Origin: Candidatus Staskawiczbacteria bacterium
Lineage (GTDB): Bacteria > Patescibacteriota > Minisyncoccia > Minisyncoccales > Staskawiczbacteraceae
Reading direction: 5' to 3'
DNA length: 40,512 nucleotides
Assembly: GCA_903928565.1 (NCBI GenBank)
Contig: CAIYRH010000013.1
Span: forward strand, 1 to 40,512
Shown here: piece by piece, positions 12,618 through 38,117 of the stretch
How positions within the stretch are numbered: position 1 is the stretch's first letter
Layout: every line of letters begins with the position of its first letter
Notes under the pieces: model-generated
Told to the model about the DNA's origin: nothing
Database searches by the model: none
What the model saw: only the letters and a program-made list of their open reading frames with translations
Translations under genes and position numbers: made by a program

Positions 12618-13244
12618 TTATGTCCCACCTTTAATTTTATAAACAACTTGGTTAAAGTCACCCTCTCTGACTATTCTGCCTGCCCCTAACAGCTCGTCTA
12701 AATCTCTTCTAATTGTTCTTTTGGTTACGCTGGGAAGAATTGTTTGCAAGTCCATAACCTGCGCTTTGGCATTTTTTTCTAAATATTCTATAATTTGCCT
12801 TTGCCTCGCCGTAAGTTTACCTGAAGGCGGGCCTTGCCTCGCCGTAAGTTTTTCTAACGGCCGGCTTTGGCTAGGTGCTTTTACTTCTTCTGGCTGTTCA
12901 ATAATAATGGGAGCATTCCGGTGCACCGGCATTACTAATTTAAACTCTGCTTTTAATTTATCGTATTCATTTGCAACAATTAAGTAATTAACGGCGTTTA
13001 ACCAACCTTGCGCTTTTCCAATCCATAAATAGCCCAAAAGAATGTCTATGTCCTCTAAAAGTTGCGCTTTGGTTTTTTCTTTTTGAAAAGACAGCCAGCC
13101 CGAAGTTTCGTGCATTAAAATTAAACTTTCTAAAATTGCCAGCGCTTTTTCTTTGGCGCGGTTTTTTAACGGGTCAACTTCTGGAAAAAATTCCAAAACT
13201 TTGTAAACGGTGTTTGTTAATTTTATAAATTCTTCTTTATTCAT
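12618..13244 (-). CDS. Helical-bundle N-terminal domain fused to a DeoR-type winged HTH
   Basis: C-terminal LTARQRQIIEYL...LPSVTKRTIRRDLDELL..G; the N-terminus resembles four-helix-bundle proteins (LTNTVYKVLEFFPE.DPL). Confidence 0.75.
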   Translation of the reverse strand: MNKEEFIKLTNTVYKVLEFFPEVDPLKNRAKEKALAILESLILMHETSGWLSFQKEKTKAQLLEDIDILLGYLWIGKAQGWLNAVNYLIVANEYDKLKAEFKLVMPVHRNAPIIIEQPEEVKAPSQSRPLEKLTARQGPPSGKLTARQRQIIEYLEKNAKAQVMDLQTILPSVTKRTIRRDLDELLGAGRIVREGDFNQVVYKIKGGT

Positions 13245-13380: not shown

Positions 13381-13421
13381 GCTCTGCAAAAATTAGACGA
13401 TCGTCCAATTTTTGCAGAGCT
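13381..13421. repeat. 41-bp palindromic direct repeat, copy 1
   Basis: GCTCTGCAAAAATTAGACGATCGTCCAATTTTTGCAGAGCT: a 40-bp palindrome with one mismatched pair, identical to 13992-14032. Confidence 0.97.
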
Positions 13422-13440
13422 AATAATACAAGAGTATAAT
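13412..13440 (+). promoter_or_regulatory. Sigma-70 promoter whose -35 lies inside the palindrome
   Basis: TTGCAG-N17-TATAAT with the ATG 6 nt later (leaderless). Confidence 0.6.
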
Positions 13441-13446
13441 ATAATA

Positions 13447-13983
13447 ATGTCACCATTTAAACAAAAAATATTATTGTTGCTTTTAGGTGGTTTATCCTTT
13501 GGATGCTCCTATACTGCTCGAAATCAATGGAAGGTTATTAAAACCGTATCACGCGAATGGAAAAAAATTGACAAAAAAGAACTGCATAAAGAAATATCTA
13601 GCCTATATCACTCTAAATTAGTTAAAAAGACAGAAAATCAAGATGGCACATATACTTTTACGTTAACAGATAAGGGGCGGTTAAAGGCGTTAACATACAA
13701 TTTTGAAAAACTAACGATTAAACAGAAAGATTGGGACGGAAAGTGGAGGTTTATAATCTTTGATATCCCGGAGAAATTTAGAGTTGGCAGGAACGCTTTA
13801 CGCGAAAAGATTAAAAAATTAGGATTTTACGAGCTCCAAAAAAGCATCTTTATATTCCCCTACGAATGCTCCAATGAGACTGAATTTATTGTAGAATTTT
13901 TTGGAATAAACAAATATGTTCGCTATGGAACAATGGACTTCATAGATGACGATGTTTATTTAAAAAATCATTTTAAATTATAG
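13447..13983 (+). CDS. PaaX-like protein (winged HTH plus Cas2/VapD-like ferredoxin fold)
   Basis: LTDKG wing, then WDGKWRFIIFDIPEK...RNALREKIKKLGFYELQKSIFIFPY. Confidence 0.85.
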   Translation: MSPFKQKILLLLLGGLSFGCSYTARNQWKVIKTVSREWKKIDKKELHKEISSLYHSKLVKKTENQDGTYTFTLTDKGRLKALTYNFEKLTIKQKDWDGKWRFIIFDIPEKFRVGRNALREKIKKLGFYELQKSIFIFPYECSNETEFIVEFFGINKYVRYGTMDFIDDDVYLKNHFKL

Positions 13984-13991
13984 AAATATCA

Positions 13992-14032
13992 GCTCTGCAA
14001 AAATTAGACGATCGTCCAATTTTTGCAGAGCT
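13992..14032. repeat. 41-bp palindromic direct repeat, copy 2
   Basis: Identical to 13381-13421; starts 8 nt after the stop codon. Confidence 0.97.
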
Positions 14033-14036
14033 TAAG

Positions 14037-14045
14037 TTATCCACA
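14037..14045 (+). promoter_or_regulatory. DnaA-box match
   Basis: Perfect TTATCCACA, with an inverted partial partner CTGTGGAT at 14053-14060. Confidence 0.45.
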
Positions 14046-14126
14046 GGTGCTACTGTGGATTTTATGTTTAAGAAAATTGTAAAATAAAAGAATTTAAAAA
14101 AAATTTAAACTCCTGTAAAAAATATC

Positions 14127-21079: not shown

Positions 21080-22096
21080 ATGAATATAGATAATTTGGAA
21101 AAAGTTTTGGCAACCGAACCAAAATACCGCCTAACGCAAGCAAAAGAGGCGGTTTTAAAAAACTTTATTTCCAATTGGGCAGAAGCTACTTTTTTTACAA
21201 AAGAATTACGCGATAAATTAAACAAAGAATGTCCACTTGAAATTAATTCGGACGTTTTAGTTTCTAAAAAAGAAGACAGCGTTAAGGCACGCATAACTTT
21301 GCACGACGGCCTGCAAACCGAAACAGTTTTAATGCGCCACGAAGACGGCCGAAATACTGTTTGCGTTTCTTCGCAAGTTGGCTGCCCGCTAGGCTGTTTA
21401 TTCTGCGCCACTGGCAAAATGGGGCTGAAAAGAAGTTTAACAACAAATGAAATTATAGAACAAGTGATATTTTTCAACAGGTACCTGAAAAAAATCATCC
21501 CGAGCGAAGTCGAGGGATTATTCCATGGTGTCACCAACGTCACATTCATGGGCATGGGCGAACCATTTCTAAATTACAACAATGTTTTAGACGCTGTAAG
21601 AATATTTAACGATTACAAATATTTTAACATTGGCGTGCGCTCAATTTCAATTTCAACAGCTGGAATTATTGAAGGCATAGAAAAATTAAGTAATGAAAAA
21701 TTACACGTAAATTTGGCAATTTCGCTTCATGCGCCCAATGACAAATTGCGAAGTGAATTAATGCCCATAGATAAAAAATACCCCTTGCCCAAAGTTTTAA
21801 AAGCAGTTGACGAATATATTAAAAAAACAAACAGGAAGGTTATGTTTGAATATGTCTTAATTAAAGATGTAAATGATTTGCCAGAGAATGCGCGCGAATT
21901 AGCTACAATAATGAATAAAAAATTATATTTTGTAAACTTAATTTTATACAACGATACTGGTATTTATGAGGCTTCAACAACACAACGCGTAAAAGAATTT
22001 AGAGACATTTTAGAAAAATTAAAAATACGCTACACTCAGCGTTACAGATTTGGCGACGACATTTCGGCTGCCTGCGGGCAATTCAAAACTACTTAG
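21080..22096 (+). CDS. rlmN: 23S rRNA (adenine2503-C2)-methyltransferase, radical SAM
   Basis: CVSSQVGCPLGCLFCATG, FMGMGEP, ISLHAP, FEYVLI..VND, DISAACGQ; start taken at MNIDNL. Confidence 0.96.
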   Translation: MNIDNLEKVLATEPKYRLTQAKEAVLKNFISNWAEATFFTKELRDKLNKECPLEINSDVLVSKKEDSVKARITLHDGLQTETVLMRHEDGRNTVCVSSQVGCPLGCLFCATGKMGLKRSLTTNEIIEQVIFFNRYLKKIIPSEVEGLFHGVTNVTFMGMGEPFLNYNNVLDAVRIFNDYKYFNIGVRSISISTAGIIEGIEKLSNEKLHVNLAISLHAPNDKLRSELMPIDKKYPLPKVLKAVDEYIKKTNRKVMFEYVLIKDVNDLPENARELATIMNKKLYFVNLILYNDTGIYEASTTQRVKEFRDILEKLKIRYTQRYRFGDDISAACGQFKTT

Positions 22097-34332: not shown

Positions 34333-36042
34333 TTAAGCTACTTCACTATTGTAGCACGATTCGCAATAAACAATTTCTGGCCTGTCGGGCGCGTAACTAG
34401 TTTCAAATTCATTAGTACATCCTTCTTTCATGCATTGGCGGTGAAACAAGTGAAATTTGTTCCTTTGCAAAATTCTCTCTGCATAACGGCATTCAACACA
34501 TAACCTGGGCAAGGGCAATTCTTCTTTTCTTAAAAATTCTAATTCTGGTTTTATAATACGGTAAGCCTTTTTACATTTATCACATGCAATTAATTTTGAA
34601 ATAATAGTATCTTCAGCGTCTATAATTGAATTTGGTAAATCACTTGCATTTATATTCACTTCATATTCTGTTTTTTCTACGTTGTCCCAGCTAAATCCTT
34701 GCTCTGACGCTTGTTCTCGCGTTAAAGGAAAATATTCATTTACTACAGAAGTATTATATTCAAATGGAGAATGCTCTATTGGAAAAAATTCGCCATATTT
34801 GTATACTCTTCCCTTTTTATCAATATAGGGCAACATATTCATATGTTCAATAATTTTCTTTACCAGTTCGTAATAAACGGTTTCAGAATATTGTTTATTA
34901 AAAATACAATATTTTTTATTTATTAAACCAAAACAACCAAAACAGTCAGAACTATTTTTCATAAACATGCAATATGCTAAATTGCTATTCTCTGGCCAAC
35001 ATTCCACGCAAAACTTAGAATTAGACAATCCATAGCCACATGTCGTATTTTCGTAGCAAAGCTCATTAGGAGAGCCCCACACAGATATGTCCATAGAATC
35101 CTTTGACCCGGGGACTGTATGATTTTGGCAGTAACGAAGATTGTCGCCTTCATAAACAAGATATCCCATATAGATATTGCGTGAATGAGAAATATATTCT
35201 CCCAAGACGTTAGAGTTGTTAGTGCCCTGTATATATTTTACCGGCGCCTTAAGCCAAAACTCGTGAGATTTTTTCTTTACATCCTGGCACCCGCTCCACG
35301 TTTGTAATGAAAATAATTTAACTTTTTCCTCATATTCTTTTTTAGAATAAGGAACATTAAAAATGTGGTGCGATTTGTTTCGCAAATTAACGCATCCAAA
35401 ACAGTCTACGCATCCTTTACAATTTTTAGAAAATAAAACATTTGTGCAGTCATTACACTGAGTTGAAAAATGCGTTCGGTAACAATTCATTGACCAAAAT
35501 AATTCATATGACCGTTCGCACTCAGTTATGCTTGTGGAATCAAAACACTCCCTGCAATGAAAAGATGCGTTACAATAAGCACTATTTTCCATGTGACTTG
35601 TATTAAAAATTAGGTACGAATCTTTCGCATAGTCTGAATTTGCAATAAATTCCGATCTTAAATTACCAACGTCACCCGAAGTTCCCCAATGAGGCACAGT
35701 TAAAGAAAGCTCATGAAACTGCTCAAAAAATGGCTTTGAAAAGTTGTAATCAACTCCATATAGCATGGCATCCCAATCATCTTCACGCCATTCGTCGTCA
35801 CTATAAACAGGAATTTTAGATTGCTTAGAATATAATGAAAATATTTTCTTGCCCGTCTTTAAACTAATATTAAAAAATGCTTTGCGTTCGTTTCTGTAAG
35901 ACATTCTTCTTTGAAACCTACATTTCCAACAAAATGTTGGGGCGGGAACTTTCATTTTTTCGTAAAACGCAAAATCATCGGGCTCAATTACAAAGTCCTG
36001 TTTACAATTTTGGCAAACTTTTGTTTCACTTAAATGTTCCAT
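34333..36042 (-). CDS. Cys-rich Zn-ribbon / beta-solenoid-like protein, paralog 1
   Basis: CxxC pairs at both ends, Cys/Ser/Asn-rich short repeats, CFGCVNLRNK, YKYGEFFP, FETSYAPDRPEIVYCESCY. Confidence 0.85.
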   Translation of the reverse strand: MEHLSETKVCQNCKQDFVIEPDDFAFYEKMKVPAPTFCWKCRFQRRMSYRNERKAFFNISLKTGKKIFSLYSKQSKIPVYSDDEWREDDWDAMLYGVDYNFSKPFFEQFHELSLTVPHWGTSGDVGNLRSEFIANSDYAKDSYLIFNTSHMENSAYCNASFHCRECFDSTSITECERSYELFWSMNCYRTHFSTQCNDCTNVLFSKNCKGCVDCFGCVNLRNKSHHIFNVPYSKKEYEEKVKLFSLQTWSGCQDVKKKSHEFWLKAPVKYIQGTNNSNVLGEYISHSRNIYMGYLVYEGDNLRYCQNHTVPGSKDSMDISVWGSPNELCYENTTCGYGLSNSKFCVECWPENSNLAYCMFMKNSSDCFGCFGLINKKYCIFNKQYSETVYYELVKKIIEHMNMLPYIDKKGRVYKYGEFFPIEHSPFEYNTSVVNEYFPLTREQASEQGFSWDNVEKTEYEVNINASDLPNSIIDAEDTIISKLIACDKCKKAYRIIKPELEFLRKEELPLPRLCVECRYAERILQRNKFHLFHRQCMKEGCTNEFETSYAPDRPEIVYCESCYNSEVA

Positions 36043-36067
36043 GTTATTTGTACTGTCATGCGTACTG

Positions 36068-36092
36068 TCAGATTAACATTATGTTAACCTGG
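36068..36092. promoter_or_regulatory. Degenerate copy of the CAGGTTA/TAACCTG inverted-repeat site
   Basis: TCAGATTA-N9-TAACCTGG, 25 nt upstream of the paralog 1 ATG, the same spacing as for paralog 2. Confidence 0.7.
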
Positions 36093-36100
36093 ATAGGTTT

Positions 36101-37828
36101 TTATGCTACTTCACTATTGTAGCACGTTTCGCAATAAACAATTTCTGGCCTGTCGGGCGCGTAGCTAGTTTCAAATTCGTTCGTGCACCCTTCTTTCATG
36201 CATTTTCTATGCCAAAGTCTAATGGGATTACGCCAAGCAAATCTCGCATAATGCCTGCAATTTGGGCAGATTTTAGGCAACGGAATATTAAGTTTTTTAT
36301 AAAATTGCAGTTCCTGGCTAGTAATTTTAAACGCACCGGCGCATTCGTGGACGCATTCCTTATTATGGCGACAACTAATAACTTCTTTTATAATACCCTC
36401 AGCTACATATAAAATGCTGTCTGGGATATCTTTACTGTCAATCGTTGTGCTAAAATTTTTATCTTCAGGTTCTCTCCAAATAAGTCCCGTTTTTTCAACT
36501 TGTTCCCTTAAAAGAGGAAAATTTTCATATGCAAAAGATTCATTATAGGCTGTAGGGCTCATTTCGGCCGGAAAAAATTCTCCATATTTATATACTAGCC
36601 CATTTTTATCTGTATAAGGCATATCATTCATATGTTGAATGATTTTTGGCACCAATGCTTCGTATTCCTCTTTGGTGTATTGCTTATTAAAAATGCAATA
36701 TTGTTTATTCCTAAGGCTAATGCACCCAAATAAATTTGAAGAATTTTGTCCACAAAATAAACAGTACTTCAAATTTGAAACAGATGAATAACAAGACCAA
36801 CAAAAAGCAAGATTATAGGCCCCTTTTCCTACAACTAATGATTCGTAAATCAATTCGGCCGTGTCTCCGAAGTTGCTGTAATCGTAACAATCTTTTGACG
36901 GTATATTACTTAGACTTTGACAGTATTTTACATTTTCTGCTCCGCTAGCTCTCCAACAATTTATCGCATTTTTAGAATTGGAAATATAGTCCCCAGAAAC
37001 TTTTGTGTTATGTCGTCCATGAATAAATTTGTTTGGAAATTTTATCCAATGATTAATAACCTGCTCGCGAATATTATTTATACTTTGAGCCGAGTCTAAT
37101 CTAAGTTCTTTAATTTTCGTTGCATATTCTTCTTTTGAATATGGTTTATTAAAAATATAATAAGATTTATTTTTTAAATTAATACTGCCAAAACAATTAT
37201 TGCAACCAACACAATTTTTACAAAAAACTACAGCATTGCAACCTTCACAATCTATAGAATATAACGTTTTATAACACTTGGTAATGCTAACACAATCGTA
37301 GCAAAGCTCTGAATCAAAAAAGATATGGCAATCAAAAATGTCTTTAGAATTAACGCCAGAAATTGAATGGGCAGAATTTTCAACATATGATACAACATGA
37401 CTAAGATAACAATCTTTAGGTTCTGTGGCATTATTGCAAAAGTCACTTCGTATAGGACTAATAAGCGACCGAGACATTATTGGCACTTGATAAAATAACT
37501 CTCTAAATTGCTCAAAGAATGGGCGGGAAAAATCGTAATCTATACCATAGGCCATTGGATCCCACGAATCGGAGTACCATTCTGACGTTTCTAAAATTTT
37601 GGCCATAGAATCTTCATGAAAAGCGGAAAATATTTCTTTCCCATGTATGTCTTTTTTTCTAAAAAGTTTCCATTCATTTCTCCAAGACCAGCGCCTTTGC
37701 ATTCTGCAATTTGGGCAAAAAGTTGGTGCGGGCACCGTCATTTTTTTGTAAAACGCAAAATCATCGGGCTCAATTACGAAGTCCTGTTTACAATTTTGGC
37801 AAACTTTTGTTTCACTTAAATGTTCCAT
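36101..37828 (-). CDS. Cys-rich Zn-ribbon / beta-solenoid-like protein, paralog 2
   Basis: Same architecture as paralog 1; the first 27 aa are identical and the last ~33 aa nearly identical. Confidence 0.85.
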   Translation of the reverse strand: MEHLSETKVCQNCKQDFVIEPDDFAFYKKMTVPAPTFCPNCRMQRRWSWRNEWKLFRKKDIHGKEIFSAFHEDSMAKILETSEWYSDSWDPMAYGIDYDFSRPFFEQFRELFYQVPIMSRSLISPIRSDFCNNATEPKDCYLSHVVSYVENSAHSISGVNSKDIFDCHIFFDSELCYDCVSITKCYKTLYSIDCEGCNAVVFCKNCVGCNNCFGSINLKNKSYYIFNKPYSKEEYATKIKELRLDSAQSINNIREQVINHWIKFPNKFIHGRHNTKVSGDYISNSKNAINCWRASGAENVKYCQSLSNIPSKDCYDYSNFGDTAELIYESLVVGKGAYNLAFCWSCYSSVSNLKYCLFCGQNSSNLFGCISLRNKQYCIFNKQYTKEEYEALVPKIIQHMNDMPYTDKNGLVYKYGEFFPAEMSPTAYNESFAYENFPLLREQVEKTGLIWREPEDKNFSTTIDSKDIPDSILYVAEGIIKEVISCRHNKECVHECAGAFKITSQELQFYKKLNIPLPKICPNCRHYARFAWRNPIRLWHRKCMKEGCTNEFETSYAPDRPEIVYCETCYNSEVA

Positions 37829-37853: not shown

Positions 37854-37878
37854 TCAGGTTACCCTACGATAACCTGAG
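37854..37878. repeat. 25-bp palindromic direct repeat, copy 1
   Basis: TCAGGTTA-CCCTACGA-TAACCTGA-G, identical to 38093-38117. Confidence 0.95.
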
Positions 37879-37894
37879 CTTTTTGATACCTTTT

Positions 37895-38086
37895 TTATTT
37901 TTGTAAATCGGCTATCAACAATTTTATGTCAACATCTTGTTTGAAAATAATATAATCTCGGCCCATTTTACGTGCCTTAATATTCCCCCGCCAAATTCTT
38001 TTAAGCACGGAGACCTTGCTTATTTCCAGAACTTCTGCCAACTCGGTTGTTGTATAAAAATCTTTTTCTGTTATTATTTTTGACAT
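37895..38086 (-). CDS. Excisionase/MerR-like HTH protein (HTH_17 type)
   Basis: FYTTTELAEVLEISKVSVLKRIWRGNIKARKMGRDYII. Confidence 0.88.
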   Translation of the reverse strand: MSKIITEKDFYTTTELAEVLEISKVSVLKRIWRGNIKARKMGRDYIIFKQDVDIKLLIADLQK

Positions 38087-38092
38087 TTCGTT

Positions 38093-38117
38093 TCAGGTTA
38101 CCCTACGATAACCTGAG
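38093..38117. repeat. 25-bp palindromic direct repeat, copy 2
   Basis: Identical to copy 1; 6 nt upstream of the HTH ATG and downstream of a TATAAT at 38137-38142 (minus). Confidence 0.95.

Follow-up and report, generated by a model that had tools for sequence, protein, structure and literature searches.

A truncated PaaX-type regulator gene between two identical palindromes in a Candidatus Staskawiczbacteria genome: a candidate autorepressor with a private operator pair

Lambda CI (OR/OL) and LacI (O1/O3) are looping autoregulators with operators on either side of the gene, and RAYT genes, which are single-copy and largely vertically inherited, are bracketed by their own palindromes of the repetitive extragenic palindrome (REP) or REPIN type, with paralogs having private repeat families. 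The locus described here consists of a short gene of the PaaX family between two identical palindromes. It lies in a 40,512-nucleotide (nt) stretch of contig CAIYRH010000013.1 from a Candidatus Staskawiczbacteria bacterium, which we call the window and whose source genome is labelled G000. PaaX itself is the phenylacetate catabolism repressor of E. coli and Pseudomonas (PDB 8a39, 3l09) and has an N-terminal winged helix followed by the Cas2-like domain PaaX_M. In a phenylacetate-pathway review, TGATTC(N27)GAATCA is named as the E. coli PaaX site, and PaaX is said to shut down its own promoter, Px, by sterically hindering RNA polymerase (PMC9493321). Gene regulation in Patescibacteria, or candidate phyla radiation (CPR) bacteria, is very poorly known, and a search of a literature library found no paper linking PaaX with Patescibacteria and no description of the protein family and flanking palindromes considered below.

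The gene is an open reading frame (ORF) at 13447-13983 on the plus strand that codes for 178 amino acids (aa). On both sides of it stands the same 41-nt repeat, GCTCTGCAAAAATTAGACGATCGTCCAATTTTTGCAGAGCT, at 13381-13421 and 13992-14032, the two copies being 100% identical and 611 nt apart. Each copy is a palindrome with arms of 20 and 20 nt and no loop, the arms being 95% complementary with a single non-pair; the 40-nt site pattern did not turn up in any of 100 shuffles. Copy 1 is separated from the ATG by 25 nt (13422-13446) and the stop from copy 2 by 8 nt (13984-13991), so that the coordinates and the identity agree with an initial annotation of this DNA, which had described a gene bracketed by twin palindromes at these distances. 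The same annotation had called the copies direct repeats. Matching the site to the reverse strand leaves two mismatches that amount to one A/C non-pair, and since both copies have the same non-pair and the same mismatches, they are indeed direct repeats. The unit thus reads as a candidate operator with promoter, a probably leaderless gene, a second palindrome in the 3' untranslated region (UTR) and a terminator, with the following features.

13381-13421, no strand: upstream operator candidate; exact repeat, dyad between 13400 and 13401, right arm holding the -35
13411-13440, plus strand: promoter-like element; -35 TTTGCA at 13411-13416, 18-nt spacer, -10 TATAAT at 13435-13440
13447-13983, plus strand: mini-PaaX gene, 178 aa; supported by the ORF, a PF20803 match, an AlphaFold2 model and a PDB fold match
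13992-14032, no strand: downstream operator candidate; identical to copy 1, in the 3' UTR and ahead of the terminator
14039-14070, plus strand: intrinsic-terminator-like hairpin with T-rich tail; hairpin at 14039-14060 with 8 pairs, from a terminator scan and an RNA fold

The promoter-like element agrees with the consensus at 10 of 12 positions and is the top match between 13100 and 14300, in a scan by consensus matching only that found 7 promoter-like sites where 5.5 were expected. Its -35 does lie in the right arm of copy 1, as had been noted before; the leaderless promoter proposed along with it is a consensus match. The -10 ends at 13440, 6 nt ahead of the ATG, which fits a leaderless transcript, and no Shine-Dalgarno motif was found ahead of the gene. 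We therefore regard the transcript as probably leaderless. The terminator scan returned 4 candidates (0.9 expected), one of which is the hairpin and T-run after copy 2.

The protein matches PaaX_M (PF20803) with 72.9 bits against a cut-off of 24 (E 2.2e-20, residues 94-164); the domain is present in all 3 paralogs of the genome, and no other Pfam family was matched at E up to 1 except a sub-threshold Imm59. An AlphaFold2 model built on 84 family members (mean predicted local distance difference test score, pLDDT, 86.1) shows a winged helix-turn-helix (HTH) at about residues 3-73, with three helices and a beta-hairpin and with pLDDT mostly above 85 from residue 40 onward, followed by a linker helix (75-87) and a Cas2-like beta-alpha-beta-beta-alpha-beta domain (about 100-175). 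A fold search of the PDB with this model gave E. coli W PaaX (8a39; E 6e-5, 188 alignment columns) as the best match, then Rv0674 (3kfw), then Cas2 chains. The profile sequence search of the PDB gave weak matches only (E of 0.02 or above) to winged-HTH proteins, Cas2, 3kfw and 8a39, and the C-terminal half searched alone by sequence had no match there. The Pfam match, the model and the fold matches bear out the initial annotation, which had joined a winged HTH to a Cas2-like fold. A homodimer prediction scored 0.40 against a mark of 0.42 and was not used as evidence.

The window protein differs from PaaX in several respects. Its chain stops at residue 178, just past the Cas2-like domain, compared with 305 residues in the 8a39 chain, and the C-terminal effector (phenylacetyl-CoA) domain is absent. 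The PaaX equivalog model TIGR02277 gives 29.3 bits, far below its cut-off of 264.55. No paa genes lie among the 4 nearest neighbour genes, the part of the genome that was searched for them, and a second candidate operator stands just after the stop. As many as 13 paralogs of the family occur in one 0.8-Mb genome, and every one of them has a site of its own. The likeness to Cas2 lies in the ferredoxin-like fold of the C-terminal half. The Cas2 model TIGR01573 scores 19.3 against a cut-off of 24.5, the domain is fused to a winged helix, and Cas1 (PF01867) had no match in the 95%-complete G000. Taking sequence and predicted structure together, the protein is a truncated PaaX-family member, a "mini-PaaX", with a winged helix and a Cas2-like PaaX_M domain and no C-terminal effector domain. 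The family comprises 6795 clusters (50% identity) at E up to 0.001 and 1133 at E up to 1e-30. Its members are named "hypothetical", "PaaX" or "Cas2" in databases, and the records calling mini-PaaX proteins Cas2 are probably misannotated.

The palindromes also resemble the PaaX operator. That operator (6-N27-6) spans 39 bp, has inverted distal half-sites with the hexamers about 14-19 bp from the dyad and overlaps the promoter that it regulates, at which PaaX autorepresses by occlusion (PMC9493321). In each half-site of the window palindrome, an A/T tract separates a G+C-rich core near the dyad from a specific 7-mer on the outside, which occupies positions 14-20. By this comparison of geometry, a 40-bp site is of normal length for the PaaX family. 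The earlier argument, by which 41 bp and full identity would be more than an operator requires, does not stand up here, since the characterised PaaX operator is 39 bp long and has its outer half-sites at the same positions.

Our preferred interpretation, to which we give a probability of roughly 60%, is that the gene product is an autorepressor, a truncated form of PaaX, which has its own cognate operator pair and a few additional targets. We infer binding, repression and looping as follows. A dimer would bind each palindrome, the Cas2-like domain being the dimerisation motif in PaaX. At the upstream copy, which covers the -35 of the gene's own putative leaderless promoter, binding would occlude RNA polymerase and switch off the protein's own synthesis, as PaaX does at Px. 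The downstream copy in the 3' UTR would most likely serve as an auxiliary operator: a dimer of dimers would hold it to the upstream copy and so close the whole 0.6-kb gene into a repression loop. As with lambda CI at OL/OR and LacI at O1/O3, the repressor gene would be enclosed by two cognate operators, one over the promoter and the distal one presumed cooperative. Unlike those cases, the protein belongs to another family, the loop would hold only the regulator gene (about 0.6 kb), and an oligomer beyond the dimer is putative.

G000 (718 kb in 18 contigs, 95% complete, 37% G+C) contains 3 copies of the window palindrome, namely the two flanking ones and one at C3:247-286. No further half-sites were found in G000 with up to 4 mismatches per 20-nt arm, such arms occurring at these 3 palindromes only, and the site was not found within 3 mismatches in the other 25 genomes of the genus. 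A genome-wide REP unrelated to the gene, which the initial annotation had named as an observation that would refute a specialised cassette, is thereby ruled out. The C3 copy, which may be an additional target of the repressor, is a perfect palindrome, unlike both flanking copies. Because the flanking copies share the A/C non-pair and the C3 copy is perfect, the full identity and the shared mismatch are best explained by gene conversion or duplication between the flanking copies, and it would be gene conversion that keeps them identical.

Two paralogs of the window gene lie at C18:4538-5059 (52% identical) and C2:51837-52373 (41% identical) of G000. Of 40 relatives in the same order, 22 have the family, and the number of matches in a genome ranges from 0 to 13. 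Single-protein scans for related loci gave 11 metagenome loci and 4 genome loci. We gathered 89 loci, of which 86 from 23 genomes were testable (L070 and L095 are cut by contig ends and the flank of L092 is too short). For each we compared the 220 nt ahead of the ATG with the region from -12 to +160 around the stop and recorded the best match without gaps, with 344 cross-locus pairs as controls; this match test was used since a strict palindrome finder under-counts, many sites being imperfect palindromes. The upstream/downstream match beat all 344 controls in 45 of 86 loci and exceeded their 99th percentile in 72, and 75 loci were above the 99th percentile when the inverted orientation was also allowed. 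Nearly every gene has its own quasi-palindrome of 34-44 bp upstream and again just past the stop, and the sites differ among paralogs. In 67 of these 72 loci, the two copies agree at 0.81 or above at positions 1-17 from the dyad, and farther out the agreement drops to 0.53-0.73. A/T makes up 80-99% at positions 6-11, and G/C 93% at position 3. Upstream of the genes, 35 of 86 loci have a -10-like hexamer whose end lies 3-12 nt from the chosen ATG, the distance being exactly 6 nt in 19 of the 35; a control window gives 15 of 86. A Shine-Dalgarno-like motif is present in 1 of 86.

The sites co-vary with the proteins. Site distance correlates with protein distance (Spearman 0.32, Mantel p 0.001), the mean site distance rising from 0.30 to 0.60, whereas in a control the 21 nt just outside the site are flat against protein distance (0.03, p 0.25). 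This flank control is the main safeguard, because kinship inflates such tests. Moreover, when the sites are ranked by their distance to the upstream copy of a locus, the downstream copy of that same locus comes first in 53 of 70 cases, and 6 cases are ties. The initial annotation had proposed as a test that homologs should be flanked by their own palindromes in step with the protein, and this is what the family presents (72 of 86 loci). Flanking and co-variation fit both an operator pair and a mobile element, to which we return below.

Low-copy sites away from the genes were surveyed in the relative G014, which was taken whole (836 kb, 13 family genes) with a census of 151 long palindromes. 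Each site type has 2-5 copies, and for five gene types the same site, or one closely related to it, is also present as 1-2 solo copies. Some solo sites are promoter-proximal: C15:7134 precedes the ATG of a Zn-ribbon gene by 16 nt, and C15:63430 stands 47 nt ahead of a gene that looks leaderless. Others are situated between convergent genes. For one site type, with four to five occurrences in G014, there is no cognate gene.

Solo sites at the promoters of other genes would also be expected if the bracket were incidental, with the upstream copy autoregulating and the downstream copy being the operator of the next gene in an ordinary small regulon. In 62 of 83 loci the next gene runs in the direction of the regulator gene, in some loci it starts a few nt past the downstream site (7 nt in L011), and the second site of a bracketed HTH_17 gene in the window, described below, stands 25 nt ahead of a Zn-ribbon gene (site end 37878, ATG 37828, minus strand). 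The downstream motif is nevertheless present with convergent next genes (16 of 21 loci) as well as with co-directional ones (53 of 62). The downstream copies mostly start at the stop codon or a few nt after it, with the dyad usually 15-35 nt past the stop, while the next gene starts at a median distance of 95 nt from the end of the motif (range -13 to 552). Downstream motifs have a -10-like hexamer in the 45 nt after them in 28 of 70 loci, compared with 42 of 47 scorable loci for upstream motifs. The presence of the downstream copy regardless of neighbour orientation, its position close to the stop and the fewer -10 hexamers after it argue that it is part of the regulator's own unit and not of the neighbour's. 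In the window, furthermore, the terminator stands between the downstream copy and the next gene, whose ATG is 95 nt beyond that copy. We consider an incidental bracket quite unlikely.

Several observations weigh against the autorepressor interpretation. The protein has no recognisable effector domain and hence no evident signal. Site types in G000 have 3, 2 and 2 copies, those of the C2 and C18 genes being flanking copies only, so that 2 of 3 paralogs have cognate sites solely at their own flanks, and control of nothing but itself would be odd for a repressor. Among orientable loci (score difference of at least 6), 30 have the copies in direct and 6 in inverted orientation, for which a symmetric dimer gives no reason, and some strongly asymmetric sites are kept between species (L014/L016; L005/L009/L038). 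The sites diverge fast even among syntenic orthologs, which is unusual for ordinary repressor-operator pairs. Read on the sense strand, the arm non-pairs of the 72 loci are G.T more often than A.C, 47 vs 26 upstream and 50 vs 26 downstream; this excess (97 vs 52 in total) could come from selection for a hairpin on the sense strand, or it may be no more than a strand bias of mutation. The downstream site of the window is transcribed and very stable as an RNA hairpin. Finally, shared kinship inflates every family count given here.

The last observations raise the question of whether the palindromes act mainly as RNA or single-strand hairpins, that is, as 3'-UTR stabilisers or terminators for this gene and the one upstream of it, with the Cas2/VapD-like domain binding or cutting its own transcript. 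The fold of 13975-14060, in which the downstream copy forms one hairpin and the terminator-like element the second, has -36.8 kcal/mol and a z of -8.2. Beyond this fold and the G.T excess, the upstream neighbour is co-directional in 61 of 84 loci, so that the upstream copy could close the preceding transcript, and profile positions 102-135 align weakly with the N-terminal part of Cas2 chains (E 0.03). On the other hand, the upstream copy is ahead of the gene's own -10 and therefore outside its own mRNA. No U-run follows the palindrome on the plus strand, a separate canonical terminator exists, and the window's own non-pair is A.C on the sense strand. No Rfam family was matched at threshold; at E up to 1 there were only sub-threshold microRNA-like hairpin matches. 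A hairpin alone would leave the sequence co-variation with a winged-helix protein unexplained, and the geometry fits the known double-stranded DNA operator of the PaaX family. We think this explanation very unlikely.

The direct-repeat bias, the kept asymmetries and the fast divergence of sites among orthologs would instead fit a site-gene-site unit that is a self-contained mobile or recombining cassette. Its winged-HTH/Cas2-like protein would recognise palindromic ends, possibly as hairpins or cruciforms, and the gene would be acquired, lost, flipped or shifted from one cognate solo site to another. Such a unit could be likened to RAYT genes with REPINs or to recombination-site cassettes, but with a non-HUH protein. 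The palindromes lie at the exact edges of the unit, with the downstream dyad close behind the stop, and 30 of the 36 loci that can be oriented have their copies as direct repeats. Copy number is patchy, and solo sites are few per genome, one of them being within an ORF (G000 C9:39374-39399). Residues of Cas2 type, D106, R115, Q131 and S133, are invariant or at least 90% conserved; across the family R115, Q131 and S133 are invariant, and D97, K99, W100, F105, D106, G126 and P138 are conserved at 90% or above. As in REPIN-RAYT systems, the gene is flanked on both sides by a cognate palindrome, paralogs have private repeats and extra copies are dispersed. The differences are that G000 has no match to an HUH/Y1 transposase (PF01797), that the window protein is a winged HTH with a Cas2-like fold, that each site family has 2-5 copies, far below the tens to hundreds of REPIN populations, and that the upstream copy doubles as the promoter -35.

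Gene order around the locus bears on this possibility in both directions. The 4 nearest neighbours of the window gene encode an ECF-type sigma factor, a DeoR-like HTH protein and proteins of 239 and 264 aa without a Pfam match above cut-off. At least 10 relatives share a one-strand order of clpB, 188-aa, 264-aa and 1335-aa genes, then further on 354-aa, 208-aa, sigma factor and anti-sigma-position genes. Compared with these, the window segment from 13.4 to 22.1 kb (from the PaaX-like gene to the 354-aa gene) is inverted, and the cassette stands at one junction; in the 70%-identical relative, it stands one gene away. Inversion through the palindromes was considered and rejected, the other junction (22089-22096) being without a palindrome. 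At another syntenic slot, where the relative G010 has the PaaX-like cassette L032, G000 has an HTH_17 gene and a 198-aa membrane-protein gene between two copies of another palindrome (C15:14768-15649), and different regulator families seem to have been swapped there. Several paralog groups, in contrast, keep both neighbours across species: the RNase HII-like group L008/L011/L013/L014/L016 (5 loci) does so across families of the order, and rpoC-X-ftsK (6 genomes), L005/L009/L038 and L031/L033/L034 do so as well. A fixed and syntenic locus without empty sites had been named beforehand as an argument against mobility, and conserved synteny is what these groups have.

Direct traces of movement were not found where they were sought. 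No near-identical copies of the unit exist in G000, whose paralogs have different sites, and the closest relative in the genus is 69% identical, again with a different site; a unit of this kind, lacking both near-identical copies and a transposase domain, does not resemble an insertion sequence or transposon. Pfam detects no recombinase or transposase domain in the 178-aa protein, and G000 encodes one tyrosine recombinase. We scanned 21 empty syntenic gaps in G000 and G014 for a solo palindrome. None of the 8 gaps of 300 nt or less (for example G000 C6:3861-3914, G000 C18:26166-26216 and G014 C4:32114-32156, where the flanking genes are adjacent) has a cognate-like palindrome, so that the empty site with a single palindrome predicted for a mobile unit did not appear; the longer gaps contain unrelated genes and no PaaX-like remnant (hmmsearch E above 0.5). 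This result is weak either way because a relic would have decayed at this divergence. A predicted circle of about 611 bp, or any excision joint, was likewise not seen in 4 lake-water runs of one study, in which Logan contigs of depth about 4 give little power; Logan contigs end inside the window palindromes, and one Logan contig corresponds to the C3 copy. No RNA run was listed among those that contain the stretch. We conclude that a mobile or recombining cassette is not supported, and we consider it unlikely. Of the two readings that the initial annotation had left side by side, the autoregulatory operator pair is thus favoured, and the mobile hairpin-ended element gains no specific support.

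A more far-reaching version, which we hold to be similarly improbable, would make the unit a new self-recognising cassette, in which the winged-HTH/Cas2-like protein maintains, homogenises and occasionally relocates or inverts its own gene between private palindromes, as a REPIN/RAYT- or integron-like symbiont without an HUH transposase or a dedicated recombinase. If true, it would account for why the two copies are mostly direct repeats, why solo sites exist, why copy number is patchy and why regulator cassettes are exchanged at fixed slots in the genome.

Under the autorepressor interpretation, the family has a practical value. With a probable binding site on both flanks of each gene, thousands of natural protein/operator pairs could be read from sequence, and the flanking sites form a data set for the winged-helix recognition code and for the reconstruction of CPR regulons.

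Twin sites around small regulators are a recurrent design in these genomes. In the window, two identical palindromic repeats of 25 nt, at 37854-37878 and 38093-38117, enclose a 63-aa HTH_17 gene on the minus strand (37895-38086). In G014 a 91-aa winged-helix gene is likewise enclosed by identical palindromes, which are 300 nt apart and have a third copy elsewhere in the genome. These two brackets show that twin sites are independent of the Cas2-like domain. The twin-operator layout is therefore common to at least two other small regulator families and may be a general rule of streamlined genomes.

Zn-ribbon genes are repeatedly found next to such palindromes. The 37854-37878 repeat precedes one, and a related palindrome at about 36070-36095 stands before a second. 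The window proteins in question (34333-37828) have about 570 aa and N-terminal CxxC Zn-ribbon motifs and belong to a greatly expanded family; tblastn gives about 19 matches in the 718-kb G000 and about 10 in G014, and family members are often in tandem with palindromes ahead of them. At C18:66589-66625 and 68385-68421 of G000, two 37-nt palindromes that differ by one base flank a 567-aa Zn-ribbon gene, each standing about 11 nt before the ATG of a paralog. Their core also flanks PaaX-like genes in two relatives (L045, L054), and no cognate gene is assembled in G000. The solo site within an ORF mentioned above (L152) is a 26-nt palindrome of the T6-GC core-A6 class, which follows an N-terminal hydrophobic helix in a 186-aa ORF; if that ORF is real, the palindrome would be translated within the protein.

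Long palindromes may also affect what is recovered in assemblies. Those of 35-45 bp may break them: two G000 contigs start with one and the same palindrome, and, as noted, Logan contigs end within the window copies. If so, family copy numbers in metagenome-assembled genomes are under-estimates. The G000 case is a 36-nt perfect palindrome that opens both C5 (1-36) and C9 (1-36). Homologs of the genes at these two ends flank the family gene L029 in G014, and from this gene order the assembly probably broke at the palindrome between C5 and C9, hiding a cassette or a solo site.

Two metagenome contigs that are about 99.4% identical, L136 and L137, differ at the centre of the upstream site, where one strain has CCCGCTGCCGCGGG and the other its reverse complement, CCCGCGGCAGCGGG. 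Both have a perfect palindrome as the downstream site, and about 340 nt just upstream of the cassette cannot be aligned between the strains. Lastly, a 33-nt tandem direct repeat (82% identical) at 12801-12866 of the window lies within the 208-aa DeoR-like HTH gene, where it duplicates a short peptide.

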